64,000 nucleotides of DNA from positions 672,001 to 736,000 of the forward strand of contig CAVVCZ010000004.1 of the NCBI GenBank assembly GCA_963746845.1, in the 5' to 3' direction. The notes beneath the pieces are model-generated. The model was not told the DNA's origin. It made no database searches and saw nothing but the letters and a program-made list of their open reading frames with translations. Position 1 is the first letter of the stretch; each line of letters begins with the position of its first letter. Origin of the DNA: an uncultured Chloroflexia bacterium (GTDB lineage: Bacteria; Chloroflexota; Limnocylindria; Limnocylindrales; CSP1-4). The translations under genes were made by a program, and so were the position numbers. Shown here piece by piece: positions 8,262-55,246 of this stretch.

Positions 8262-10983
8262 TCAGGGCTTCGGCGTCCTCGGCGGCTGACCGTTGCCCGG
8301 GTTTGGTGTTGGCGGCGTCGGGTCGCCCGGGTTCCCGGGTGGCGGACAGAACAGGCCGAACGGGTTGTCGCACGGCGGCGGCTCGACCGGTGGTGGCGCG
8401 AGCGGGCAGAGCTGGGTCGGGGCGAAGATTCCGCCCCACGTGCGCCCGAACGGGAAGAACCCCGTGCCGTAGAAGTACGACGTGCGCGTGCTCTTGAGCC
8501 CGCCGCCGCGTCCGGAGCCCCGGGCGGCCCGCTTCATCCAGTTGTTGTCCGCCCGCTGCCAGTTGGCGTGGCCCGCGTCGACCTGGCTGTAGTCGAGCGC
8601 GCCGACCGTCTTCATCGGCCCGACGCACCCGTCCTGCCAGAGCAGACCGCTCGCCGCGTCGATGTCGACGGAGCGGTGGAAGTCGTCGGTCTGGGTCGGC
8701 TCCGTCCCGGCGACGAAGAGCTCCTTGATGGTCTTCCCGGTGAACGGACCGGGCTTGTAGCCGGTGAATCGCGTCGACGGTCGCCGTCACCAGGCCCTTC
8801 GGCGGCTTGAAGGTCGCGATCGGCGAGCCCTTCGTGACGTCGGTCATGATCCGCGACCAGAGCGGCGCCGACGAGCCGAGCGACAGCGTGTCGGTGTCGG
8901 GCGAGTTGTCGCTGTTGCCCATCCAGACGCCCACGACGATCGCCGGCGCCTTCGGATCCTTCGGCGGCGCGACGAAGCCGTAGGCGTGGACGTCGCGGTT
9001 GTCGTTCGTCGTGCCCGTCTTGTAGGCGGCCGGGCGACGCGACCCGCCGTCCGTGACCGACCACTCACCCCAGAACGGGTTCGTCTTCGGGTCGGTGTTG
9101 CCCGCGAGGATGTCCGTCATGATGTAGGCGGTCTGCGGGCTGATCACGGCCTTGCCCTTGGCCGGCTTGGCAGCCGGATCCGGCCAGATCACCTTCCCGT
9201 TGGCGTCGACGACCTTCAGGATCGTCGTGCGCGCCATCAGCTTGCCGCCGTCCGCGATCGCGCCGTACGCGCTGATCATGTCGATCGGGTGGACCTCGAG
9301 GGTGCCGATCGCCATCGACGTGACCGGCACGGAGCCCGGCACATAGTGGATGCCGAAGTCCTTCGAGCGGTCGTAGAAGTGCTTGAGTCCGTTCATCAGG
9401 CCGGCCTTGATCGAGGGGATGTTCAGCGAGAACTGGAGCGCCTCCCGGAGACGGACCGGGCCACGTTCCAGCTTGTCGGCCTGGGTCGGGATGAAGTTGC
9501 CGCCGAAGTTCGTGGTCACGTCCATGAACAGCGTTGCCGCCGTCATCGTCCCGTCCTCGATCCCGATCGAATAGTTGATCGGCTTGATCGACGATCCGGG
9601 CTGGCGCCAGCCGTCGGAGAGGACGTCGAACTGGGGCTGGAACTTCTTCGTCGGTCGAGCGTTGAAGCTCGCCGAGCCGGCATAGGCGAGGACCTGGCCC
9701 GTCCGGTAGTCGAGGACCGCCGACGCGGCGTTGTGGAGGTTCTTGCCCTTCAGGTTCTGGATCCAGCTCCAGTCCTTGCTCGGGATCTTCAGGTTCTTCA
9801 GCGTCGTCCGGGTGCCGGTGTGGTTCGGGGCCCAGGCGGCGGCGTACAGCCACTTCTCGACCGTCGACTGCATCTTCGTGTCGAGCGTCGTCGTGACCCG
9901 GTAGCCGCCCGTGTCGATCTTGTCGCACTGGTCGACCGCGACGTCGGGACAGAGGATGCCGCCGAGCTCCTGGCGGACCTGGAGGACGAACTGCGGGGCC
10001 CGCCAGTGGTTCCCGAGCTGCGGCGCGAGGACGATCGGCTCGTCCTTGGCCTGCTCGTACTCGTCGGTCGTGTGGTGTGATCCGGACAGCGGGCTGCGGC
10101 TCTTCATCAGATCCAGGACGTAGTTCCGGCGCTTGTAGATCTCGGAGTTCGGATCGACGACGAGACTGAGCTTCTTCGCGTCGCAGCTGTCGGCGTCGAC
10201 ATTCGGCGTCGCGCAGACCTCCTGGGCGTTCCGGACGAGGTCGTACGCGGTCGGCGACTGGGGGATCGCCGCGAGGACGGCCATCTGGGCCAGCGTCAGG
10301 TCCTTGAGGTTCTTGTTGAAGTACGTGTGGGCGGCCGCCTTCACCCCGTAGCTCTGGTTCCCGTAGAAGTTCTGGTTGAGGTAGGCGGTGATGATCTCCT
10401 GCTTGCCCTCCTCACCCGGATAGGCCTGGGTGAGACGGAGCGACTGGATGATCTCGCGGATCTTCCGCTCCTCGCGGGAGCCGTTGAAGGCCTCCGCGGG
10501 CAGAAGCCGCGCCCGGACCAGCTGCTGGGTGATGGTCGATCCGCCGCGGGGATGGCCGGACAGCGTGTCGACGGTGGCGGAGACGAAGCCCGCGATGTCG
10601 AAGCCGGGGTTTGACCAGAAGTCCTTGTCCTCGATCGCGGTCGTGGCGTCGAGCAGCTCGGGTGGCAGCTCGTCGTAGGTCACGACCTCGCGCTTGAACT
10701 CGCCGAGCTTGGCGAGCTCGGCCTTGCCGGTCCGGTCGGTGATCGTCGTCTGCTGGTCGAAGCTGAGCTCGCTCAACGTGTGCTTTGGGTCCGGCAGGCC
10801 CTGGCTGTAGTAGTTGTAGGCGGCCGCGACCGCGACGAGGCCCGCCAGGCCGATCAGGAGGAAGACGGCCAGAAGCAGGATCGGGATGGCGATGAGGACT
10901 CGACGAAGGGTCGACGAGCCGCCAGGCCGTCCGCGTCCGACGCCGCGCCGATGGCGCTGACGCCGCGCGAGGCTGGTCTGCAT
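8262..10983 (-). CDS. Class A penicillin-binding protein (transglycosylase + transpeptidase), apparent +1 frameshift near 8769
   Basis: EDKDF, GGSTITQQL, RKIRE, YLNQNFYG (GT51); GSSIK, SLN, KTGT (TP). Removing one base near 8769 restores VDAFTGYKPG and joins the 8262..8615 ORF. Confidence 0.9.
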
Positions 10984-11060
10984 GTCGGGCCGCACGATAG
11001 CATAGGGGTCGTGGAGGTCCCCCCTGTCCAGACGGTCGAGACGGCTCGGCCGCGGGTCCT

Positions 11061-12398
11061 GTGACGCCCGCCGGCGGCGCGGCGGAGGCTCCTCCGACGC
11101 TCGCGACGCTCCTCGACGAGCTCGAATGGCGCGGGATGCTCCACGGCTCGACGCCGGGGCTGCCGGCCCGTCTCGCGAGCGGGCGGCCCATCGCCGGCTA
11201 CAACGGGTTCGACCCGTCGGGGCCGTCGCTCCATGTCGGCCATCTCGTGCCGATCTTCGGGCTGCTCCAGTTCCAGCGGCACGGCGGGCGGCCGGTGGCG
11301 CTGCTCGGCGGCGGGACGGGGATGATCGGCGACCCGTCGGGCCGGTCCGACGAGCGCAACCTGCTCGACCGCGAGACGCTCGCGGCGAACGTGGCGGCGA
11401 TCAGCGTGCAGCTGGAGCGGTTCCTCGACTTCAGTCCGGCCGCCGGGGACCGCGGCGCGATCCTCGTGAACAACCTCGACTGGCTCGCGGGGATCGGGCT
11501 GATCGACTGGCTTCGGGATGTCGGCAAGCACTTCACGATCCCGTACATGCTGGCCAAGGACTCGGTGACGACCCGGATGGATCGCGGCCTGTCGTTCACC
11601 GAGTTCAGCTACATGCTGATCCAGGCGACCGATTACGAGCATCTCCACCGGACGATGGGCGTCGACCTCCAGATGGGCGGGGCCGACCAGTGGGGGAACA
11701 TCACCGCGGGGCTCGAGCTGATCCGGCGCCGGGCGGGGCTGGTCGACGAGGACGGTGACCGCGGGGCGGACGAGCCGGCTCATGGGCTCGCGTACCGGCT
11801 TCTGCTGTCGCCGTCCGGCGCGAAGTTCGGCAAGACCGAGGGCGGGACATCGGTCTGGCTGGATGCCGAGCGGACCTCGCCGTACGCGTTCTACCAGTAC
11901 TGGCTGAACACGGACGACCGCGACGCCGGCACGTACCTGCGCTGGTTCACGCTGCTCGGACGCGAGGAGATCGAGGCGCTCGAGGCGGAGATGGCCACGG
12001 CCCCCGAAACGCGAGTGGCGCAGCGCGCGCTCGCGCGGGACATCACCGAACGGACCCACGGAGCGGAGGCAGCGGAGCATGCCGCAGCTGACAGTGGGGC
12101 GATCTTCGCCGAAGCCGACCCGGCCGATCCAGCGCAGCTCGCGCGTCTGTTCGGGAACGTCAATTCCTTCGAATTCACCCGCGACCAGCTTGGCCTCGGC
12201 TCGGCCGCGTTTGCGGCAGGCACGGCCATCTACCCGTCGACCTCGGAAGCCCGTCGCGCGATCCAGCAGGGCAGCCTCTGGATCAACGGTGAGCAGATCG
12301 CGTCGTTCGATGCCCCGGTTCCGCCTCCCATCGCCGGTGAGTTCGTCGTTGTCCGGACGGGAAAGCGCAAGAAGAAGATCGGTCGCATCAAGGCGTGA
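11061..12398 (+). CDS. tyrS: Tyrosine-tRNA ligase
   Basis: YNGFDPSGPSLHVGH (HIGH), GGADQWGN, KFGKT (KMSKS), C-terminal S4-like domain. Confidence 0.97.
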   Translation: MTPAGGAAEAPPTLATLLDELEWRGMLHGSTPGLPARLASGRPIAGYNGFDPSGPSLHVGHLVPIFGLLQFQRHGGRPVALLGGGTGMIGDPSGRSDERNLLDRETLAANVAAISVQLERFLDFSPAAGDRGAILVNNLDWLAGIGLIDWLRDVGKHFTIPYMLAKDSVTTRMDRGLSFTEFSYMLIQATDYEHLHRTMGVDLQMGGADQWGNITAGLELIRRRAGLVDEDGDRGADEPAHGLAYRLLLSPSGAKFGKTEGGTSVWLDAERTSPYAFYQYWLNTDDRDAGTYLRWFTLLGREEIEALEAEMATAPETRVAQRALARDITERTHGAEAAEHAAADSGAIFAEADPADPAQLARLFGNVNSFEFTRDQLGLGSAAFAAGTAIYPSTSEARRAIQQGSLWINGEQIASFDAPVPPPIAGEFVVVRTGKRKKKIGRIKA

Positions 12399-45787: not shown

Positions 45788-46318
45788 CTACGGGTTGGCG
45801 ACCGCCCAGTTCGCGATGGCCGAGCCGTTGGTGTCCCCGGCGGCCTTGTCGGCGGCGAAGTAGTACAGCGGCATCCCGTTGTATGCCAGCTGCTTCGATC
45901 CGTCGTCGCGGGTCACGATCGTGAGCTTGCCGGTGGCGGCGCTGTCGGCCTTGACCTCGGTGAGGTCATCGGCCGCGTAGGGCGGCCAGTTGTCCGCGCA
46001 GTTGCCGTTGCAGACGCTCTTGCCGGAGTCGGCCGTGTCCTTCTTGAAGATGTACAGGGTCTTGCCGTCCGCGCCGGTCAGGAAGCTGACGGTCGCCCCG
46101 CCGACGGTGCCGCTGCCGATCTTGAGCGGGTAGCTCCCGGCCGCACCCGAATCCGAGCTCGCCGGGCTTCCGGCGGCCTCGCTCGGTGCTGCAGCGCTCG
46201 GTGCCGCGACGCTGGCCGCGGCCGACGGCGACGGGGTCGCGCCGGTGCTGCTGCATGCCGCGAGCACGAGGATCAGGGGCATCGCAGCGGCGAGGCCGAA
46301 GAATCGATGTCGGTTCAT
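45788..46318 (-). CDS. COG4315 (Lipoprotein_15 repeat) lipoprotein
   Basis: Lipobox LAAC; G.TLY.F.KD...S.C.G.CA..WPP and QLAYNG.PLYYF..D...GD.NG repeats. Confidence 0.88.
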   Translation of the reverse strand: MNRHRFFGLAAAMPLILVLAACSSTGATPSPSAAASVAAPSAAAPSEAAGSPASSDSGAAGSYPLKIGSGTVGGATVSFLTGADGKTLYIFKKDTADSGKSVCNGNCADNWPPYAADDLTEVKADSAATGKLTIVTRDDGSKQLAYNGMPLYYFAADKAAGDTNGSAIANWAVANP

Positions 46319-46364
46319 GGCTCGGACAGTCCTCCAGGGAGTGGTGCGCGTCCCACACGACCCG

Positions 46365-46391
46365 TACGCGCCCGCATCCCCGACGGTTTCC
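46365..46391 (-). promoter_or_regulatory. ECF-sigma-type promoter of the COG4315 lipoprotein gene
   Basis: Minus strand GGAAAC-N17-CGTA. Confidence 0.45.
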
Positions 46392-46444
46392 CTCGCCCGC
46401 GCCGGACCGTCATCATGGATCGTCCACACCTCGAGGAGGGCGTC

Positions 46445-47341
46445 ATGGCGGGTCTGGAGACGCTGGCGATTCGCACCCCGGACGGCCGGACGCTGGAGTG
46501 TCACGTCGCCGGCCCGCCCGACGGCGACGTGCTCCTGTTCCACGACGGCACGCCCGGCAGCGGGCTGCCACCGGACGCATTCGTCGAGACCGCAGCCGCC
46601 CGGAACCTCCGGTCCGTCACCTTCGCCCGGCCGGGTTACGCGACATCGACCCGACGACCGGGCCGGAGCGTCGCGGACGTTGCCGAGGACGCCGTGGCGG
46701 TCCTCGACCACTTCGGGGCCGATCGGTGCTTCACGATGGGCGCCTCGGGCGGCGGCCCGCACGCGCTGGCGTGTGCCGCGCTGATCCCGGAACGCGTCCG
46801 GGCCACGACCGTCATCGCGGGTGTCGCCCCGTTCGGGGCGGTGGGGCTCGACTTCCTCGCGGGCATGGCGCCGGAGAACGTCGAGGAGTTCGGCGCCGCG
46901 GTCGAGGGGTCGGACGCGCTCGTGGCGTTCCTGAGCGGTGCCGCGCAGGCCTTCGCCAATGTGACCGGAGCCGAGATCGCGGACGCGTTCGGCGGGCTCG
47001 TGTCCCCGGTCGACCACGCCGCTCTCACCGACGACTTCGCCGACGCCGTCGCGGCGGACGTCCGCAACGCGCTCTCGAGCGGGATCTGGGGCTGGCACGA
47101 CGACGACCTCGCGTTCGCCGCGCCATGGGGCTTCGACCCGGCCGGGATCACGGGCCAGGTCGACCTCTGGCAGGGCGAGCAGGATCGGATGGTCCCGTTC
47201 GCCCATGGCGTTTGGCTCGCGGCCAACGTCGGCCACGCTCGAGCGCACCTGCTACCCGACCATGGGCACCTGTCCCTGCAGGTCGCGCTCCTCGGCCCGA
47301 TCCTCGACGTGATGCTCGCGGGTGCCGAGATCAGCGCCTGA
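46445..47341 (+). CDS. Alpha/beta fold hydrolase
   Basis: HDGTPGS, RPGY, GASGGGP nucleophile, D.MVP, GHLS; SD GAGGAGG. Confidence 0.9.
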   Translation: MAGLETLAIRTPDGRTLECHVAGPPDGDVLLFHDGTPGSGLPPDAFVETAAARNLRSVTFARPGYATSTRRPGRSVADVAEDAVAVLDHFGADRCFTMGASGGGPHALACAALIPERVRATTVIAGVAPFGAVGLDFLAGMAPENVEEFGAAVEGSDALVAFLSGAAQAFANVTGAEIADAFGGLVSPVDHAALTDDFADAVAADVRNALSSGIWGWHDDDLAFAAPWGFDPAGITGQVDLWQGEQDRMVPFAHGVWLAANVGHARAHLLPDHGHLSLQVALLGPILDVMLAGAEISA

Positions 47342-47422
47342 CCGAGGGCTAGACGCGCGTCCATGCCGGGCGCGGGCGTTCGTCCGTGGTGATGGGCCGA
47401 GCACGACCGCAGCATGTCGGCC

Positions 47423-47716
47423 ATGGACCCAACGGCTGTTCTGACCGCCATCGCGGCACTCGTCATCGTGTCGACCATCATCACCGCCACGATCCGTGTC
47501 CTGGCGGACGCCTCCGAGGACAGCGGGTTCGCGATCCTGTTCGCTCCGCTCGTGAAGGGTCTGTCGCCAAAGCCCGGGCCGGTCGTCCGGGAGCCTGAGC
47601 CGACGGCGTGGCGCTTCGACCTGATGAAGCCTCGGATGAGCGCGCCCGACCCGATCGCCCGGCCGACAACGGTCCCCCAAAAGGTCCGCTCCGGCGCCGG
47701 GTTCGCGCGGCCCTGA
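47423..47716 (+). CDS. Small hypothetical membrane protein
   Basis: N-terminal TM helix, GC3-rich codons. Confidence 0.55.
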   Translation: MDPTAVLTAIAALVIVSTIITATIRVLADASEDSGFAILFAPLVKGLSPKPGPVVREPEPTAWRFDLMKPRMSAPDPIARPTTVPQKVRSGAGFARP

Positions 47717-47797
47717 ACCTATCGTCTCGCTGCCTGTCGGGGTTGGCCGAGACCGCGACTTGACCAAGGTGGACTAACCCCGCAGGCTCCTGCCGTC

Positions 47798-48127
47798 ATG
47801 TCCGAGCCTGTGAATATCCACGACTCGAAGATGCACCTGTCGCGTCTTGTCGAGCGCGTGGAGGCCGGCGAGGAGATCGTCCTGGCCCGGGCCGGACGCC
47901 CGGTGGCCCGACTCGTGCCGTATCGGGGCAGGCGCGAGCCACGCGTGCCCGGGGGCTGGAAGGGCCGGGCGGACCCACTCGACCGGATGCTGGTCGCCCA
48001 GGCCGAAACCCTGGGAGCCACGATCGTCTCGCGCGACGTCGCACTCGACGCGTACGGCATCAACCCTGCTGACGGCCTGAGGCGGCTGTCCTACGAGAGC
48101 ATGGGATCGTCGGCCCGCCAGATGTAG
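47798..48127 (+). pseudogene. Collapsed type II TA remnant: Phd/YefM antitoxin fused in frame to a VapC (PIN) C-terminal fragment
   Basis: NIHDSK.HLSRLV.RVEAGEEIVLARAGRPVARLVP (Phd) joined near 47970 to DPLDRMLVAQA..LG.TIVSRD..L..YG (PIN C-terminus). Confidence 0.75.
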
Positions 48128-48606
48128 ATCGGCTCGACGCCGTGGGCACCGAGCAGCTGCGAGACCTCGCCGATGTGGTAGCCGTCGTGGGTCAGGAGCC
48201 GCTGCAGGATCGAGGCGCGCGAGTGGCGCTGGACGACGTCGCGGAAGGTGCGATCGACCCGCTCGTCGAGCCTGTCCGGCGTCCATGCGTCCAGGACGCG
48301 ATCGAGGATCGCGTACGTCGACTCGAGGGCGAACACGAGCTCGGCCGCCGAGCGCGGGTGGTCGAGGTCATCCTCCCAGCCGTCCTCGGGCAGGTCCGGC
48401 CACGGCGTCTGCTCGGCACCGGGCTCGCCGAGGATGGTGGCCAGCCAGTACAGTCGCGAACCGGCCATGTGCGCCAGGATCGCCCAGATCGGCCACTGAT
48501 CCGCGGCCGCTCGCCACGCCAGCTGCTCGTCCGTGAGCGTGGACACGACGTCGATGATGCGCTGGTGGTATTGCGGCCACCGGTCGTAGTAGCGGCGGAT
48601 GCTCAT
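48091..48606 (-). CDS. DinB family protein
   Basis: ILAH...R.YW and TH..YH.GE...LG His-triad pattern. Confidence 0.85.
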   Translation of the reverse strand: MSIRRYYDRWPQYHQRIIDVVSTLTDEQLAWRAAADQWPIWAILAHMAGSRLYWLATILGEPGAEQTPWPDLPEDGWEDDLDHPRSAAELVFALESTYAILDRVLDAWTPDRLDERVDRTFRDVVQRHSRASILQRLLTHDGYHIGEVSQLLGAHGVEPIYIWRADDPMLS

Positions 48607-48651
48607 CGCCTCATGATGATGCGCGTCGCTCTCGCCTGCGATCCCAGCGCA

Positions 48652-48679
48652 ACTTCCGATAAGAGAAGTTATGTCCGTC
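48652..48679 (+). other. dif-like XerC/XerD recombination site
   Basis: ACTTCCGATAA-GAGAAG-TTATGTCCGTC: 11-6-11 layout with inner ATAA/TTAT arms and TTATGT XerD core; abuts the RT stop codon. Confidence 0.6.
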
Positions 48680-50186
48680 ATGTGAACTCGGGCCAGACTG
48701 CCGAGGCTCGACCCCTGATCTTTGCCGATAGCAAGCGTGAACCCGCGTAGCGATTGATGACATCAGCGACGTGTCTCCCGCGCGTGTTGGCGTTGGCAGA
48801 TTGAAGCGCGACCAGCGCGGCCTCGGCGACCTCCTTGACATCAAGCGACTCGCGCGCGATGAAGTCGTGGTCGGATCCATCGCCGAGCTTCCCGAGCAAG
48901 AGCGCTGCGAACTGTCGAACTTCGATGCCGGCATTTCGGTTCGCGAGGGTGACTCTCGCCCGCGCCAGGAGGATCCGCTCGCATCGCGTGCCAGACAACA
49001 TGGCACGAAAGAGGTTCATTTCCTCCCATTCGGAGATGTTGTCCGGAGAAACGAGGTGGGAAGCGACCGCTCGTTGAACGCTCGCTCGCGTTGCAAAGCG
49101 CGACAGATACCGGGCCACGGTAGACGCCAGGTAGTCAAGTTCCCCGAGTCGAGCGAGGCACCACTTGATGGCAACAGGGTCCCTGTTGTCGGTGAGTCGT
49201 CCCAGGAGATATTTGAGCTCACGACGCGGCAACGGTGTCTTGCGTCTGGAGAACTCCTTCCATGCCTTCTTGACCAGGGGAGCCGCAACGATTTTGGCCC
49301 GCTGCCTGACCACGTAGTCGATCGCCGCAATCTCGTCCTCGTCACTGACGGCCGCAATCATTTCGGCCCTGCCTACCACGAGTTCGGTCTTTGCGGACTG
49401 GACGAGTAGATCGAGGCGTCTGGCCTCGGCCTCGAGAAGCCTTAGCGCCTTCTTCGCGTCGGTCCTGTCCTTCGCCAGGACGTATATGTCATCGACGTAC
49501 CTAACGTATCCGTAACCTGCCCCAATAAGCGCCTGATCGAGCGGATGGAGGTACACACTCGCTAGAAGTCCGGACGGATCCGGACCTTGAGGAAGTCCCA
49601 CGGCCCTACCCATTGAATCCTTAAGGAACGTCCTCAGCTCGCGCGCCACATCATCTCGTACGCCAAGAGAGGTAAGGCGTGCCTCAAGCTGACCGTGTGG
49701 GATGCGCTCGTAGAAGGCCGCCAGATCCGTTCGAACCATGGCTCCGTACTTGACGGACTTGACTTCGGCACGCAGTTGCGTCCGGAAGCGCTTCCACTGT
49801 GAAAGCCCGAAGCCGAAAGGGGCTTTGGTGGAGCGCCGAGCCATAGGTCTGTAGCCGAAGACGTGGTTCTTCCCAACCAGACCTCTATCGATGTCGTACA
49901 TGAACGAGTCGACCAGAGCCTGGTAGTACAGCCGACTATCCACGGTCATTTGGTGTGCCGGACGCATGAGGCCGTTTGGCTTCGGGATCAAGGCCTCGCG
50001 GGCTCGCGGGGCACGCATTCGGCCATCGCGAAACGGGGCAAGCCGCCTTCTTGCGGCGACGAATTCGGGCCGCTCCCTTGGCACCATGGCCAGACTCAAA
50101 GGATCGGGCCACAAGTCGTCCCAGGCGTCCTGGCGGATCCGCCGCGCAGCGCGCCCGAGGGTAAGTCTGACTCGCTTGGCTGGCAT
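48678..50186 (-). CDS. Reverse transcriptase of the UG/Abi (DRT-like) lineage with C-terminal helical-repeat region
   Basis: IPK..G..RP, VFGYR, TDLAAFYERIPH, GLPQG..PSGLLA, RYVDD, SAKT; about 220-aa helical C-terminus; visibly more AT-rich than host genes. Confidence 0.9.
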   Translation of the reverse strand: MPAKRVRLTLGRAARRIRQDAWDDLWPDPLSLAMVPRERPEFVAARRRLAPFRDGRMRAPRAREALIPKPNGLMRPAHQMTVDSRLYYQALVDSFMYDIDRGLVGKNHVFGYRPMARRSTKAPFGFGLSQWKRFRTQLRAEVKSVKYGAMVRTDLAAFYERIPHGQLEARLTSLGVRDDVARELRTFLKDSMGRAVGLPQGPDPSGLLASVYLHPLDQALIGAGYGYVRYVDDIYVLAKDRTDAKKALRLLEAEARRLDLLVQSAKTELVVGRAEMIAAVSDEDEIAAIDYVVRQRAKIVAAPLVKKAWKEFSRRKTPLPRRELKYLLGRLTDNRDPVAIKWCLARLGELDYLASTVARYLSRFATRASVQRAVASHLVSPDNISEWEEMNLFRAMLSGTRCERILLARARVTLANRNAGIEVRQFAALLLGKLGDGSDHDFIARESLDVKEVAEAALVALQSANANTRGRHVADVINRYAGSRLLSAKIRGRASAVWPEFT

Positions 50187-52129
50187 CAGCTATGGCGGGC
50201 CTGATCACCAGCGCCGTAGTCGGCGACTCTCTCAGCGGCGGCCGTGAGTGATCCCTGTGGTCGATCCAACCGGGACACGAAGAAGTCGCGAGTCGGGGCG
50301 TCCACGAAGTAGACGTAGCAGCCGAGCAGGCCGCGCGTCAGCAGCACACGGTAGGTGCTCTTCACGAACTCGGTGAACTCCACCCCGGTCACGCCACTGC
50401 GGACGACCCGGTCGCTTGACTGGTCGCGCTGGCCGACCCATCCCCCATCCATCGGCCGGTACACCAGATCTGGGCCGAAGATCACCCCGACGTAGTCGAA
50501 CTCGAAGCCCTGCGCTGTGTAGACGCAGCCGACCTGGTTGATGCCTTCCTTCGCGCTCGCCCAGAAATCCGACTTCGGGATGCCGGGGCCGAGCTTCCGG
50601 GCGTCGGACTTGGCATTCCAGGGCATGGACCACTCCCCCACCCTGACGTCCGGCACGAGCTCGCCGGCCTCGTCCGGATCGGACCAGGGCCAGCAGAAGC
50701 CGGCGACGAGCCGGGCCGTCGAGCCCGTGGCGGCGCGGCCCCGGATCAGTTGGTCGAGGTCGCCGACGGTCCCGATGATCCGGAAGTCGAAGTCGTCGTC
50801 CATCGGCCAGAGGACCTGCGGTGTCCGATCGAGTTCGAGCGTGTTGTCGATCCAGCGGATGAACGAGTCCGAGCCATTCGAACGAAACTGCGCCTCGAGC
50901 TCGAACTCGCGGACCTCGAGGCCGCGCTTGGCGGCCGCCTCCCGGATCGAGTCGGTGCTGCCCGTCTCACCGGGTCGGACAACCTGAAGGTCGTCGATGA
51001 AGAACACCGACACTCGCGTGGAATCGAGGATGTCTTCCATCTGGGTCTTGCCAGTTCGTGCCGACGCCGGCGTGAAGCGACTCGTGCTGACCGACCGGAT
51101 CCGGTGGGCTTCGTCGAGGATGACAACGTCGAGCGGCTCATCGACGGTTGCGGTGTCGCGGAAGTACTTGAAGAGCACGCTTGCTCGGCCGCCGACGATC
51201 TTGCGGAGATTCTCGGTGAACGCCTTCGAGCCGGTGACGTGGATCGTCCGGAGGCCGAGCGATGCCAGCTCGGCAACGAGGTTGACCGCCAAGACCGACT
51301 TCCCGGTCCCAGGCCCGCCGGCAACGATGAACGCAACCTTGTGCTGGTTCTGACCGGCCGATCGGACCGAATCCATGACCGCGTTGTAGGCGACCTGCTG
51401 CTCGTCCAGGAGCGTGAAGACGGGTTCGTTGCGGATGACCCGGGCGACGTGGTCGAGCAAGCGCTTATGCGGCCGGAAGGCCGAGTTGGCGACGCGCTCC
51501 AGGATCAAGCCGCCCTCGTCGGGGCCAGCGACACGATCATCGAGGTAATTGGCGAGGGCGTCAGTATCGTCGCCTGAGAAGCTCGGGTTCGTTGCCAGGA
51601 GGCTCGCGAAATCCTTGCCGTAAAGCGGTGAGGCAGGGTCGTGGGTCGCGTAGTGAAGATAGGCGCACGCGTCGAGCGAGATGCCGCCGTCGGTGAATGC
51701 CGGGTGGGTGTCCAACAGGTATCGCTGGTACTGCGCGACCTGCCGCGACGGGTGGAGGCGATCGACCTCGCGCCCGCCCATGTCGACCGTCACGCAGTCG
51801 GTGATGTTCGACCGACCGACGCTGGTCCACTGCTTCAGCTCAACGATGACCGCCGTGTCCCTCGTAGTCGGGTTGGATCCGGTGATCAAGACGTCGAGGC
51901 GTTTCGAAGAGAGCGGCAGCTTGAGCTCGACGAGGACGCCCTGGTCGCGGAGATCGGCCAACTGCATGACGTTGGCCATAGCGCCGAGCGAGTTCCGCCA
52001 CGACATGACCTCGGACGGCGAGGGCTTGTAGCGGAACTCCTGGAAGAATCGATCGGCGAGCTGATTCGCAAGTCGCGCTTGCACGGCGTCTGCGATGAAC
52101 TGCTCGCTCGTGCCCTGGTAGAGGTGCAA
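50186..52129 (-). CDS. DUF2075 (Schlafen group 3-like) helicase with N-terminal PD-(D/E)xK-like nuclease
   Basis: RLDVL...IVELKQW; GGPGTGKS; ILDEAHR; QFRSNGS; QGFEFDYVG; YRVLLTRG; stop overlaps RT start (TGATG). Confidence 0.9.
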   Translation of the reverse strand: MHLYQGTSEQFIADAVQARLANQLADRFFQEFRYKPSPSEVMSWRNSLGAMANVMQLADLRDQGVLVELKLPLSSKRLDVLITGSNPTTRDTAVIVELKQWTSVGRSNITDCVTVDMGGREVDRLHPSRQVAQYQRYLLDTHPAFTDGGISLDACAYLHYATHDPASPLYGKDFASLLATNPSFSGDDTDALANYLDDRVAGPDEGGLILERVANSAFRPHKRLLDHVARVIRNEPVFTLLDEQQVAYNAVMDSVRSAGQNQHKVAFIVAGGPGTGKSVLAVNLVAELASLGLRTIHVTGSKAFTENLRKIVGGRASVLFKYFRDTATVDEPLDVVILDEAHRIRSVSTSRFTPASARTGKTQMEDILDSTRVSVFFIDDLQVVRPGETGSTDSIREAAAKRGLEVREFELEAQFRSNGSDSFIRWIDNTLELDRTPQVLWPMDDDFDFRIIGTVGDLDQLIRGRAATGSTARLVAGFCWPWSDPDEAGELVPDVRVGEWSMPWNAKSDARKLGPGIPKSDFWASAKEGINQVGCVYTAQGFEFDYVGVIFGPDLVYRPMDGGWVGQRDQSSDRVVRSGVTGVEFTEFVKSTYRVLLTRGLLGCYVYFVDAPTRDFFVSRLDRPQGSLTAAAERVADYGAGDQARHS

Positions 52130-52168
52130 GCGCTTCCCTCTCTTCGCCCGCCGGTCGATGCGCCACTG

Positions 52169-52198
52169 ACTATAGCCGCGCCAAAGTCGTCATCTCGA
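52169..52198 (-). promoter_or_regulatory. Putative sigma70 promoter of the DUF2075-RT cassette
   Basis: Minus strand TCGAGA-N18-TATAGT; SD-like AGAGGG before TTG at 52129. Confidence 0.4.
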
Positions 52199-52373
52199 CC
52201 TTGTGGAATGCCGCGTCGGACCCGTTCATTGCGGAACTAAAGTTGACAATTCGTAAGGCTGCTCTCCCTCTCGCGAGTACCCATGGAACTCGCTTCGCAA
52301 CCCGCGATCTACGGGCGATCGACGGCGATCCCCGCGCCCCTCACGGGTCGAGCGTCGTGGCATCCTCCCGCGA

Positions 52374-52943
52374 GTGATGACCAGATACCTCGTCCTCCTG
52401 CGCGGCATCAACGTCGGCGGACGGAACAAGGTGCCGATGGCGGCGCTGCGCGAGCTCCTCGAGTCGCACGGCCACACGAAGGTCTCCACGTACATTGCCA
52501 GCGGCAACGTGATCCTGAGCTCGGACCGCACGGCGACCGCGATCAAGCGTGAGCTCGAGGACGCGCTCCCTCGGACGTTCAAGCTCGACAGCGAGCTCAT
52601 CGCGGTCCTCGTCCTGACGCTCGCTCAGCTGCGGGCCGTCGTCCGGGATCGGCCGAAGGGCTTCGGCGACAAGCCCGACACGTACCACAGCGACGCGGTC
52701 TTCCTCATGGGGATCGACACGCCGACGGCGATGAAGGTCTTCGACCCGCGGCCGGGCGTCGACGAGGTGTGGCCGGGCAAGGGCGTGATCTACTCGCAGC
52801 GGCTGAGCGCCGAGAGGACGAAGAGCCGCCTGGGCAAGATCGTCGGGACGCCGGCGTACAAGTCGATGACGATCCGCGGCTGGGCGACGACCATGGCGCT
52901 GCTCGAGCGCATGGAGGCGTCCGAGGCTGAGGCCGAGGCCTGA
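52374..52943 (+). CDS. DUF1697 family protein
   Basis: Y.VLLRGINVGG.NKVPM..L...V.TYIASGNV signature. Confidence 0.9.
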   Translation: MMTRYLVLLRGINVGGRNKVPMAALRELLESHGHTKVSTYIASGNVILSSDRTATAIKRELEDALPRTFKLDSELIAVLVLTLAQLRAVVRDRPKGFGDKPDTYHSDAVFLMGIDTPTAMKVFDPRPGVDEVWPGKGVIYSQRLSAERTKSRLGKIVGTPAYKSMTIRGWATTMALLERMEASEAEAEA

Positions 52944-53059
52944 TCGTCGGGACCGCCTCGCGCCGCGGTCGCTCCCCTCCCCCGCGCCAGCGGCCGATGA
53001 TTCTCGATCGGAATCGGCCGTCTCAGGATTCGAAGACCATGCCCCGGAGGACCGACCCC

Positions 53060-53734
53060 GTGAAGTTGCTGCTCACATCGGCCGGCATCAGGAACGCCAG
53101 CATCCAGGCTGCGCTGCTCGACCTGCTCGGCAAGCCGATCGCCGAGGCGAGTGCCTTGTGCATTCCCACCTCGAGCTACGGCCTCGCCGGCGGCGGCGCC
53201 ATGAATGCCTGGCGGTTCATCAGTGGCCGGGAGCCGGAGTGTCCGATGACGGAGCTGGGCTGGAAGTCGGTCGGGGTGCTGGAGCTCACCGCCTTGCCCA
53301 GCCTGGATCGTGATCGGTGGGAGCCCGCCGTTCGCGAGACGGATGTCCTGCTCGTCAACGGCGGCGACCCGATGTATCTGCACCACTGGATGGTGGAGTC
53401 CGGGTTCGCGGCGCTCCTGCCGTCTCTCCCGGACACGGTGTATGTCGGGTTCAGCGCCGGGAGCATGGTCATGACACCGCGGATCGGCGAGGACTTCGTT
53501 GGGTGGCGACCGCCGACCGGAGAGGTCGATTCGACCCTGGGCCTGGTGGACTTCGCGATCTTTCCGCACCTCGACAATCCGGGGCTTCCCCTCAACACGA
53601 TTGCCAACGCCGAGCGCTGGGCCGCGGGCATGAGGGTGCCGGCGTACGCGATCGACGACGAGACGGCGATCAAGGTGACCGACGATGGCGTCGAGGTGAT
53701 CTCCGAGGGCCACTGGCGGCTGTTAGAGCTCTGA
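53060..53734 (+). CDS. Peptidase E-like (S51 / type 1 glutamine amidotransferase-like) protein
   Basis: KLLLTSAG, IPT, NGGD, GFSAGS, FPH, YAIDDETAI; SD GGAGGA. Confidence 0.87.
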   Translation: MKLLLTSAGIRNASIQAALLDLLGKPIAEASALCIPTSSYGLAGGGAMNAWRFISGREPECPMTELGWKSVGVLELTALPSLDRDRWEPAVRETDVLLVNGGDPMYLHHWMVESGFAALLPSLPDTVYVGFSAGSMVMTPRIGEDFVGWRPPTGEVDSTLGLVDFAIFPHLDNPGLPLNTIANAERWAAGMRVPAYAIDDETAIKVTDDGVEVISEGHWRLLEL

Positions 53735-53760
53735 TGCGCGGATCTTGTGGAGGATCGACG

Positions 53761-54207
53761 ATGACTTCGGCCGACAAGCAGGACAACGTCCTCACGACAC
53801 TGCCGGTCGCCATGACCGGCAGGGCAAGCCCCGCGAAGGCCGCGGTCGGCGACAAGCCGGTCTTCGCCTACATCCGCAGCCTGCCGCAGCCCCAACGGTC
53901 CATCGCCGAACGCGTCGATGCCCTGGCGGCCGAGACGCTGCCGGGCCTGCAGCGCTCCGTGAAATGGGGCATGGCGTGGTATGGCGTCGGGGACGGCTGG
54001 TGCTTCTCGTGTGGCGGCTTCGCCGGCCACGTCAAGCTCACGTTCGGGCGCGGCACGTCCCTCACGCCCGTGCCGCCGGTCACGCCGATCGGGATGGGCA
54101 AGGAGACGCGCGGCGTGGACCTCGAGACCCTGGACGACCTCGACGAACCGCAGGTCGCGTCATGGATGAAGCAGGCCACGGCCATCCCCGGATTCGGGAA
54201 ACGATGA
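53761..54207 (+). CDS. DUF1801 (YdhG-like) family protein
   Basis: V.AYI.SLP.PQR, VKWG..WYG, F..G..L.P.PP. Confidence 0.78.
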   Translation: MTSADKQDNVLTTLPVAMTGRASPAKAAVGDKPVFAYIRSLPQPQRSIAERVDALAAETLPGLQRSVKWGMAWYGVGDGWCFSCGGFAGHVKLTFGRGTSLTPVPPVTPIGMGKETRGVDLETLDDLDEPQVASWMKQATAIPGFGKR

Positions 54208-54289
54208 GCGCCGCAATCACGATTACGCCGAGCGGGTGGTCGCCGTCAAGCCATCCACGGAATTGGAACGGCGCGTCTATTGTTCGCGC

Positions 54290-55246
54290 GTGATCGAGCC
54301 GCCGACCCGCACAGAGCTTGAAGCCGCGCTCTGCTGGGACGCCAGTGACCTCGTTCCGCGGCGCCCGGCGATGACGGCATTCCGGCAGCGGACCCGGCTG
54401 CACCAGGCGCGATGGCGCGAGCGCGAGGGTCACCCGATCGGGTCCCAGCCGTACGCGCCGCGTCCGGGCGTCGATCCGAGGCCGGTCGGGAGCCGGATCC
54501 CGCTCGTATACGGCCGCGACACCGGGGCGAACTTCGTGACGACGGCCGCACTCGATGCGGTCGAGGCCCGGACGGCGATCATCGAGCGCGAGCAGAGCAT
54601 CGATCAGCAGGGCCTCTGGGCGGACCTGCTCTCCTCCGAGGCGCTCGCGTTCAATCTGTTCGGTGACCTCGCCGCCGACCCCACGCGGGCAGACAGCCTC
54701 GTCCACGCCTGGTTCGGCGATGCACCCGGCCGCGTCGTGGAGGTTCGGTTTCTCCACTCGCCCGGGCGCCTCGAGGCGCAGTGGCTCAACAGCCTGCGGC
54801 AATTCGACGCGGCCTTTGTCCTCTCGCGGGAGGACGGATCGCACGGCATCGTGGCGGTCGACGTGACCTACCACGAGCGCCTGAAGGCGGAGACGCCGAA
54901 GCCCGAGAACCTCTGGCGCAACCGCGAGGTCCACGAGCGATCGGCTGCGTTCCGGCCCGAGGCGTTCGACCGGGTGAAGGGTCGCAGCGACCTGTGGTCC
55001 CCGTGGCTCGAGCACCTCCTGCTGCTGTCGATGCTCCAGCACCCGGGCGGCGCCTGGACATGGGGGAGGTACCTGACCATTCATGCGGCCGACAACGTCG
55101 AGATGGCCGACCGCTCCGAGCGCTACGCCGGGCTGCTCGCGGACGCGACGACGTTCTTGTCGACCACGCTCGAGGAGGTCCTCGGGACCGGAGCGCTCCC
55201 CTCCCCCGCGGTTCGGGCCCTCCGGGATCGCTACCTGGCGCGGTAG
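54290..55246 (+). CDS. PGN_0703-like putative restriction endonuclease-fold protein
   Basis: DLLSSEALAFNLF, F.HSPGR, FDAAF...VAVDVTYHE, LEHLL. Confidence 0.65.
   Translation: MIEPPTRTELEAALCWDASDLVPRRPAMTAFRQRTRLHQARWREREGHPIGSQPYAPRPGVDPRPVGSRIPLVYGRDTGANFVTTAALDAVEARTAIIEREQSIDQQGLWADLLSSEALAFNLFGDLAADPTRADSLVHAWFGDAPGRVVEVRFLHSPGRLEAQWLNSLRQFDAAFVLSREDGSHGIVAVDVTYHERLKAETPKPENLWRNREVHERSAAFRPEAFDRVKGRSDLWSPWLEHLLLLSMLQHPGGAWTWGRYLTIHAADNVEMADRSERYAGLLADATTFLSTTLEEVLGTGALPSPAVRALRDRYLAR

Follow-up and report, generated by a model that had tools for sequence, protein, structure and literature searches.

The window, i.e., the whole stretch of 64,000 nucleotides (nt) analyzed here (contig CAVVCZ010000004.1, positions 672,001 to 736,000, from an uncultured Chloroflexia bacterium living in soil), carries on its minus strand two overlapping genes, one for a nuclease-helicase and one for a reverse transcriptase (RT), which a preliminary description had taken for a two-component antiphage system. 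Both open reading frames (ORFs) were found as described there, a frame of 647 amino acids (aa) starting with TTG and one of 502 aa starting with ATG. The genes, their domains, and their junction are as follows:

50186..52129, minus strand: Nhi-like nuclease-helicase gene, 647 aa, TTG start (PF09848 match, starts of orthologs, DNA homology).
51485..52129, minus strand: putative RecB-like PD-(D/E)xK nuclease domain, about residues 1-215 (invariant residues).
50270..51412, minus strand: superfamily 1B (SF1B)-type helicase core, about residues 240-620 (Walker A, DEAH, fold matches).
50184..50188, minus strand: TGATG stop/start overlap of the helicase and RT genes (sequence).
48678..50186, minus strand: Class 1 UG/Abi RT-like polymerase gene, 502 aa, ATG start (RVT_1, RT_UG32, RT_UG21).
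49374..50033, minus strand: palm/fingers domain of the RT, residues 52-271 (D154, LPQG, YVDD).
48717..49337, minus strand: C-terminal alpha-helical repeat domain of the RT, residues about 284-490 (AlphaFold model).

Neither gene is a chance ORF of high-GC DNA, because Pfam recognized SLFN-g3_helicase (PF09848, formerly DUF2075) in the 647-aa protein at E 1.7e-82 (residues 264-610) and RVT_1 in the 502-aa protein at E 2.4e-18. The latter is the sole RVT_1 match of the genome. All motifs quoted in the preliminary description were recovered: RLDVL at residue 77, ELKQW at 97, and the Walker A/B motifs in the helicase (GGPGTGKS at 271-278; DEAH at 339-342), and TDLAAFY at 153 (with D154), LPQG at 198-201, and YVDD at 230-233 in the RT. 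The catalytic residues of the helicase were invariant in 23 homologs, and D154, LPQG, and YVDD were invariant in 14 homologs of the RT.

Since both frames are full length and no catalytic motif is damaged or varies among homologs, it is highly improbable that one or both genes are decaying remnants without present function, a reading in favor of which the frequent fragmentation of helicase copies in relatives and the patchy distribution of the downstream cassette can be cited.

The membership of the RT in the UG/Abi lineage, proposed beforehand, was borne out by PADLOC, in which the best models were RT_UG32 (228 bits), RT_UG21 (220.5 bits), and RT_UG23 (198 bits), followed by UG22 and UG19, with the UG32 and UG21 models aligning over nearly the whole length of the protein. 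UG32, UG21, UG23, UG20, and UG19 have been placed in Class 1 of the UG/Abi RTs, a class whose defining feature is a helical-repeat domain at the C-terminus (Mestre et al. 2022, PMC9226505). In the AlphaFold model of the window RT, with an overall predicted local distance difference test (pLDDT) value of 77, the long helical C-terminus claimed earlier appears as helices at residues 284-490, mostly with pLDDT 84-94. With intact palm motifs, best matches to Class 1 profiles, and a C-terminal helical repeat, the protein is a Class 1 UG/Abi RT. Full-length Foldseek matches of the model were DRT6 (TM-score 0.56), DRT4/UG15, AbiK, Abi-P2, and AbiA, all of them polymerases that make up a defense with one gene, which fits an RT acting without a partner.

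Assignment to either UG32 or UG21 was not supported, as the two scores are nearly tied and lie far below the 516 bits that a genuine UG32 member (P0286) reaches on RT_UG32. The window RT and two sister clusters (P0260 and P0261) score 221-232 bits, in each case with a near tie between UG21 and UG32. The best reading is a divergent, very rare branch of Class 1 that is not clearly UG21 or UG32.

Three other kinds of RT were rejected. For a retron RT, the NAxxH and VTG motifs were absent and NF038233 yielded 27 bits against a cut-off of 235; for a group II intron RT/maturase, TIGR04416, with a cut-off of 300 bits, yielded 75 and covered the RT part only; and for a diversity-generating retroelement, positions 47500-52400 held just short direct repeats of at most 38 nt with weak similarity. 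The same three absences had been asserted in the preliminary description. No repeats flanking the RT were found, no Rfam family matched within 46000-54000, and no tRNA genes were present in the window; the locus leaves no room for an upstream non-coding RNA.

Tyr112 of the RT, situated within a low-confidence loop 120 residues before D232/D233, was invariant in the 14 homologs. From its spacing and invariance, it is a candidate priming residue by analogy with DRT4, in which Tyr125 lies 115 residues before D240/D241 (PMC12783706).

The RT belongs to a very rare clade. A word-indexed search of 5.8 billion proteins yielded 18 close relatives, 58-80% identical, and among 1.84 billion representatives there were 45 matches at E ≤ 1e-30. 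Three of the 150 best of these representatives were full-length relatives above 40% identity, and no helicase-RT fusion was seen, because none of the 150 exceeds 634 aa. Searches for the RT came back empty in 19 further genomes of the genus and, at E ≤ 1e-25, in a sample of 400 genomes from across the phylum. Phages gave no match, plasmids gave partial matches of at most 34% identity among the matches listed, and scans of genome, metagenome, and viral contigs yielded nothing beyond two distant RTs (27-28% identical). The metagenome contigs recovered (four runs of one study) were short; one identical piece of 151 nt spans the helicase-RT junction and probably derives from the same organism. No RNA runs were listed as holding the helicase-RT DNA.

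In the N-terminal part of the nuclease-helicase, D79, E97-x-K99, and Q130-xxx-Y134 were invariant in the 23 homologs and fell on predicted strands and one helix of a low-confidence model. We take this set to be that of a RecB-like PD-(D/E)xK nuclease, and the first 215 residues are accordingly labeled a putative nuclease of this type from their sequence. NERD emerged for this region as a weak atlas lead only (0.85). In VIA-align, the helicase core of the same model resembled DSH9 (Z 13.6), Dda (Z 12.7 and 11.4), and Upf1 (Z 10.8). Profile and sequence searches with the nuclease-helicase against solved structures returned nothing below E 0.1.

All orthologs of the helicase begin with MHLYQG, and their tails carry a weak motif, RAAE-x4-Y, regardless of the gene that follows. 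Relatives of this protein are abundant, with 7176 matches among 8000 candidates scored, and within its family the gene was present in 25 of the 201 genomes, often in fragmented copies. A second DUF2075 locus was noted in the same genome, outside the window and far from the RT (contig C4, 1365525-1366675, minus strand); it consists of two pieces in separate open frames and may be frameshifted.

At the junction, base 50186 is common to the helicase stop codon TGA (50188-50186) and the RT start codon ATG (50186-50184), which confirmed the TGATG overlap reported earlier. Overall GC content rises from 0.61 in the RT gene to 0.652 in the helicase gene and 0.711 in the window as a whole, and GC at third codon positions (GC3) was 0.70 for the RT versus 0.86 for the helicase. 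The RT is thus more AT-rich than its surroundings, as had been stated, and the accompanying caveat that it might be a separate acquisition was upheld by these GC3 values and by DNA homology that is confined, among related loci, to the helicase ORF.

Two further features belong to the array:

48091..48681, minus strand: DinB_2 family gene (PF12867, E 9.4e-16), whose ATG overlaps the RT stop codon (ATGA).
52169..52198, minus strand: sigma-70-like promoter match just upstream of the helicase start, the sole match in 47600-52500.

Helicase, RT, and DinB_2 genes form a three-gene array by virtue of overlaps of 1 nt and 4 nt. The DinB_2 gene has a native-looking GC3 of 0.88 and is probably a host gene; among all fetched loci, a homolog was present only in genome G321, where it is arranged differently. 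With one promoter-like site ahead of the helicase gene and no terminator-like sites in the array, co-transcription of the three genes is weakly suggested. The promoter scan itself was weak, with one site found and 0.6 expected.

The region downstream of the helicase was compared among family-level relatives whose helicases are 65-90% identical. DNA homology among these loci covers the helicase ORF, extending from the start codon to about 50260-50280, i.e., ~25-30 codons before the stop. The slot that follows is occupied as listed below:

G062 (same genus, helicase 90% identical): complete Lamassu, LmuA/LmuC/LmuB (387, 140, and 437 bits).
G106: complete Hachiman, HamA/HamB (256 and 1037 bits).
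G406: RT_UG13a match of 261 bits, 28% identical to the window RT, after a frameshifted helicase.
G121: NT5C nucleotidase (E 4.8e-44), overlapping the helicase stop.
G165: gene whose N-terminus is closely similar to that of the G121 NT5C.
G127: PifA/KAP-like protein, 1125 aa.
G145, G034, G152, G156, and G115: proteins with no family match or weak ones only.
G321 and G118: convergent gene after the helicase.

Flanking DNA was common to G406, G106, G145, and the window, which identifies one chromosomal site carrying different cassettes. In most loci, GC3 was 0.68-0.84 for the slot genes versus 0.74-0.96 for the helicases. Lamassu and Hachiman begin 15 and 88 nt past the helicase stop, and since complete systems sit this close to the helicase, tight spacing is not diagnostic of partnership.

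Diverged pieces of the helicase gene, mostly of its 3' end, were observed past the cassette behind an intact helicase in loci L053 (6367-6747), L054 (5716-5927), L051 (4656-4799), and L073 (10849-11164 and 3957-4292). Their identity to the resident copy is 77% in L053 and about 84-98% in the other three loci. In the protein database, long contigs likewise carry many short fragments of the helicase C-terminus; together with the leftover 3' pieces, they suggest that cassettes are exchanged via recombination inside the helicase gene.

Two of the slots gave observations of their own. The NT5C-type 5'-deoxynucleotidase of G121 (L050, 5892-6614, minus strand) overlaps the helicase stop by 11 nt, with G165 (L059) likewise arranged as judged from N-terminal similarity, and it could be a nucleotide-targeting partner or merely another cassette. 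In G406 (L046, 5591-7511 and 7514-9194), both the helicase and the UG13a RT appear split over several frames, which may reflect assembly errors rather than pseudogenes in a genome that is 53% complete.

The preliminary description had cast the RT as the occupant of a dedicated partner slot in a two-component unit. An RT was found beside the helicase, within 1.5-kb flanks, in one of the 24 other family genomes with a helicase match (G232, flagged as unpublished, is counted only here and among the 25 of 201), and in none of nine phylum-level loci whose orthologs are 39-51% identical (tblastn, E ≤ 1e-4).

The nearest readable full-length sister RT, 43% identical and located in genome G206, has opposite-strand genes on both sides, and no DUF2075 match was obtained in ~10 kb upstream and ~8 kb downstream of it. 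It adjoins Tiamat TmtA (1518 bits) and a PDC-S16 candidate; the island with sister RT, Tiamat TmtA, and PDC-S16 candidate occupies L011 2479-7914 (minus strand), 9518-9856 (minus strand), and 10154-11635 (plus strand). Because this sister is monocistronic beside Tiamat and PDC-S16, an RT of this type can stand alone and keeps defense company. With the variable slot, the constant helicase tail, the solitary sister, and the single-protein layout of Nhi, neither the dedicated partner slot nor a regular linkage of RT and DUF2075 across the loci read was sustained. The broader proposal that both genes look antiphage did hold.

It appears improbable that the RT has no defense role and is instead a domesticated or selfish polymerase with a different task, such as repairing DNA or maintaining mobile elements, which happened to end up in a variable region. 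This alternative could appeal to the defense-island signal, which the consulted parts of Mestre et al. (2022, PMC9226505) give as inconclusive for UG21, UG23, and UG32. The gene nevertheless has an Nhi-like neighbor and occupies a slot in which relatives carry Lamassu or Hachiman, its sister adjoins Tiamat and PDC-S16, the protein falls short of a group II intron maturase and has no retron features, and it is missing from the other same-genus genomes searched.

The nine phylum-level loci include MazG-like, Schlafen AlbA_2, HATPase_c_3, HNH_2, and unknown genes as neighbors of the helicase, and in two annotated plasmid records DUF2075 genes lie amid methyltransferase, DUF3883, DUF4747, and transposase genes. 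DUF2075 helicases had been said to pair commonly with a MazG-like gene; the pairing was seen in one of the nine loci. There, in G526, a low-GC member of the phylum, the MazG-like gene (E 2.9e-15; L078, 8420-8770, minus strand) ends 2 nt before the helicase start, and no other examined locus showed such a pair. The genome of the window, 92% complete, gave no match to MazG-like PF12643, in agreement with the absence noted earlier.

Two more arrangements were seen near distant orthologs. G544 has a gene with a Schlafen AlbA_2 domain that runs into the start of its gene for the DUF2075 helicase (L074, 8187-9407 and 6301-8190, both on the minus strand), so that the two halves of a eukaryote-type Schlafen protein are present as neighboring genes. 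In three genomes, a conserved protein without a Pfam family lies beside the helicase ortholog (L072, 4621-5985; L073, 8882-10000; L080, 7466-8593), upstream in one and downstream in two, and it abuts or overlaps the helicase in two. Its N-terminus contains RDERWPVARLIP, or KDEKWPVARLIP in the case of L073; L073 also contains a duplicated DNA stretch at 1501-2959.

Considering all loci, we regard it as fairly probable (roughly 0.6) that the window holds two independent single-gene defenses packed in a hotspot anchored on the helicase, and not one two-part system. Independence is favored because the slot varies, the helicase tail stays constant, the sister RT is found alone, and the layout known from Nhi is that of a single protein.

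Several observations weigh against this interpretation. The TGATG coupling, the lone promoter-like site upstream, and the absence of terminator-like sites would fit a cooperating operon, and further slot genes overlap the helicase stop, namely NT5C and the unknown genes of G152, G115, and G156, some of which could be true partners. The UG13a RT in the G406 slot is a second, unrelated UG RT, which is above random scatter, although one in 24 is not significant. Pairs of an RT and a nuclease-helicase have a precedent, since 7 of 17 UG34 RTs adjoin a protein with a NERD nuclease plus a helicase, cluster 485 (Mestre et al. 2022, PMC9226505). On the RT side, linkage rests on the G206 sister, the neighborhoods of 17 close homologs (58-80% identical) lying outside the count. 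As for the nuclease-helicase, its N-terminal nuclease region had no Pfam match up to E 10, and its structural model is poor (pLDDT 52), so that the fold search informs on the helicase core only and barely probes the nuclease part.

The coupling, the second UG RT, the UG34 precedent, and the overlapping slot genes feed the alternative of a true two-gene system, which we consider possible though unlikely. In one version, the RT would make protein-primed single-stranded DNA (ssDNA), and the nuclease-helicase would restrain it in healthy cells or act as the effector; in another, the helicase would sense phage DNA and switch the RT on; in either, the helicase would be a hub taking interchangeable downstream modules. 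A nuclease partner is mechanistically plausible because the DNA product of DRT4 is controlled by a host exonuclease: it accumulates once a phage DNA-binding protein shields it from that enzyme (PMC12783706). Against such a system speak the complete Lamassu and Hachiman filling the same slot, the solitary G206 sister, a helicase tail that is the same whatever follows, the disparity between abundant helicase relatives and 18 close RT relatives, and the scarcity of RTs beside the helicase in both sets of loci. Complex prediction for helicase residues 1-440 with the whole RT yielded 0.00 versus a mark of 0.32 and, being made with no controls, speaks neither for nor against binding.

In its most specific form, the helicase would be a conserved hub whose last codons dock interchangeable modules (at least two UG RT groups, NT5C, MazG-like, and unknown proteins), with RT and helicase cooperating. 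This proposal strikes us as rather doubtful. As an example of how it might work, the nuclease-helicase would clear or process the protein-primed ssDNA of the RT until a phage factor blocks the nuclease-helicase.

Under the preferred interpretation of two independent defenses, the helicase is an Nhi-like enzyme that, in line with the published activity of Nhi, probably acts on phage DNA or on replication intermediates by unwinding and cutting them. The RT is probably oligomeric, by analogy with AbiK, Abi-P2, and DRT4, and probably self-primed on its own tyrosine, with Tyr112 as the candidate, making untemplated ssDNA, the build-up of which during infection would stop the cell. It would have arrived as a lower-GC cassette at the 3' end of the helicase ORF, a spot taken by different cassettes in relatives. 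Co-transcription and translational coupling of the two genes are probable, and we infer that they stem from tight packing and not from mutual need.

Two neighboring genes lie outside the array. The first 40 residues of a 109-aa ORF at 47798-48127 (plus strand) match a Phd/YefM antitoxin, and no toxin partner gene was identified beside it. At 54236-55246 (plus strand), 2 kb upstream of the helicase, lies a gene for a PDDEXK_13 / REase-ARP type nuclease (E 2.1e-55); PADLOC gave no match for it, and it may be another defense-type gene of the same island.

If two single-gene defenses are indeed present, translational coupling alone made two adjoining defense genes resemble one new system. The helicase would serve as a compact, recognizable hotspot marker, with defense cassettes exchanged at its stop codon, and, with several slot genes outside every known family, the hotspot could be used to find new defense genes. 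An assay of this rare Class 1 UG/Abi branch would extend knowledge of untemplated DNA synthesis in immunity. If, on the other hand, the helicase were a hub, the locus would encode an undescribed defense of RT plus nuclease-helicase, in which the system's own nuclease plays the role of the host exonuclease of DRT4.

Among known systems, the window RT resembles DRT4 (UG15), AbiK, Abi-P2, AbiA, and DRT6, the last of which is a structural homolog of DRT4, in being a single polypeptide of ~500-600 aa with a YxDD palm and C-terminal helical repeats. It differs from all five in that identity in the fold alignments is 11-15% and profile matches cover the palm region only. DRT4, a system of one gene, needs no template and primes on Tyr125 (PMC12783706), and Class 1 DRTs make untemplated DNA (PMC13174585). 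The window RT appears to share with DRT4 the conserved tyrosine ~115-120 residues ahead of the catalytic aspartate pair, but scores 40 bits on the Drt4 model, whereas UG32, UG21, and UG23 give the best scores. UG21 and UG32 provide the top-scoring models and likewise have a C-terminal helical repeat; UG32 carries a fused helix-turn-helix domain, and in the consulted parts of the source no member of UG21 or UG32 has an assigned function (Mestre et al. 2022, PMC9226505).

On the helicase side, Nhi of Staphylococcus epidermidis and Nhi-like are single-protein defenses in which a nuclease precedes DUF2075 (bioRxiv 776245; 2022.05.11.491447), and the Nhi-like protein of Millman et al. 2022 is described as having no sequence identity to Nhi (bioRxiv 2022.05.11.491447, as far as consulted). 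The window protein likewise joins a putative N-terminal PD-(D/E)xK-type motif set and a DUF2075 SF1B helicase in one chain and is Nhi-like by architecture; it differs from Nhi in that the PADLOC model for Nhi gives just a weak match (47 bits), confined to residues 240-425 of the helicase core.

UG34 with cluster 485, which is known here by description, offers a likeness at the level of the pair, a Class 1 UG RT beside a nuclease-helicase. The window RT, however, scores 71 bits on RT_UG34, and the pairing was not conserved in the loci read. The main text of Mestre et al. (2022) makes no mention of DUF2075, and no published DUF2075-RT system was found in the literature on DUF2075 in a defense or phage context or on Nhi-like.

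As a whole, the locus is ordinary in kind, and its RT is rare: a new, divergent Class 1 UG/Abi member in a hotspot of a known general kind. As in other defense hotspots, there is a conserved anchor gene, and unrelated, lower-GC, often complete systems swap at a shared site. It departs from the usual hotspot in that the anchor itself is of defense type, the swap point lies in the last 25-30 codons of the anchor gene, and diverged leftover 3' ends of the helicase are found beyond some cassettes.

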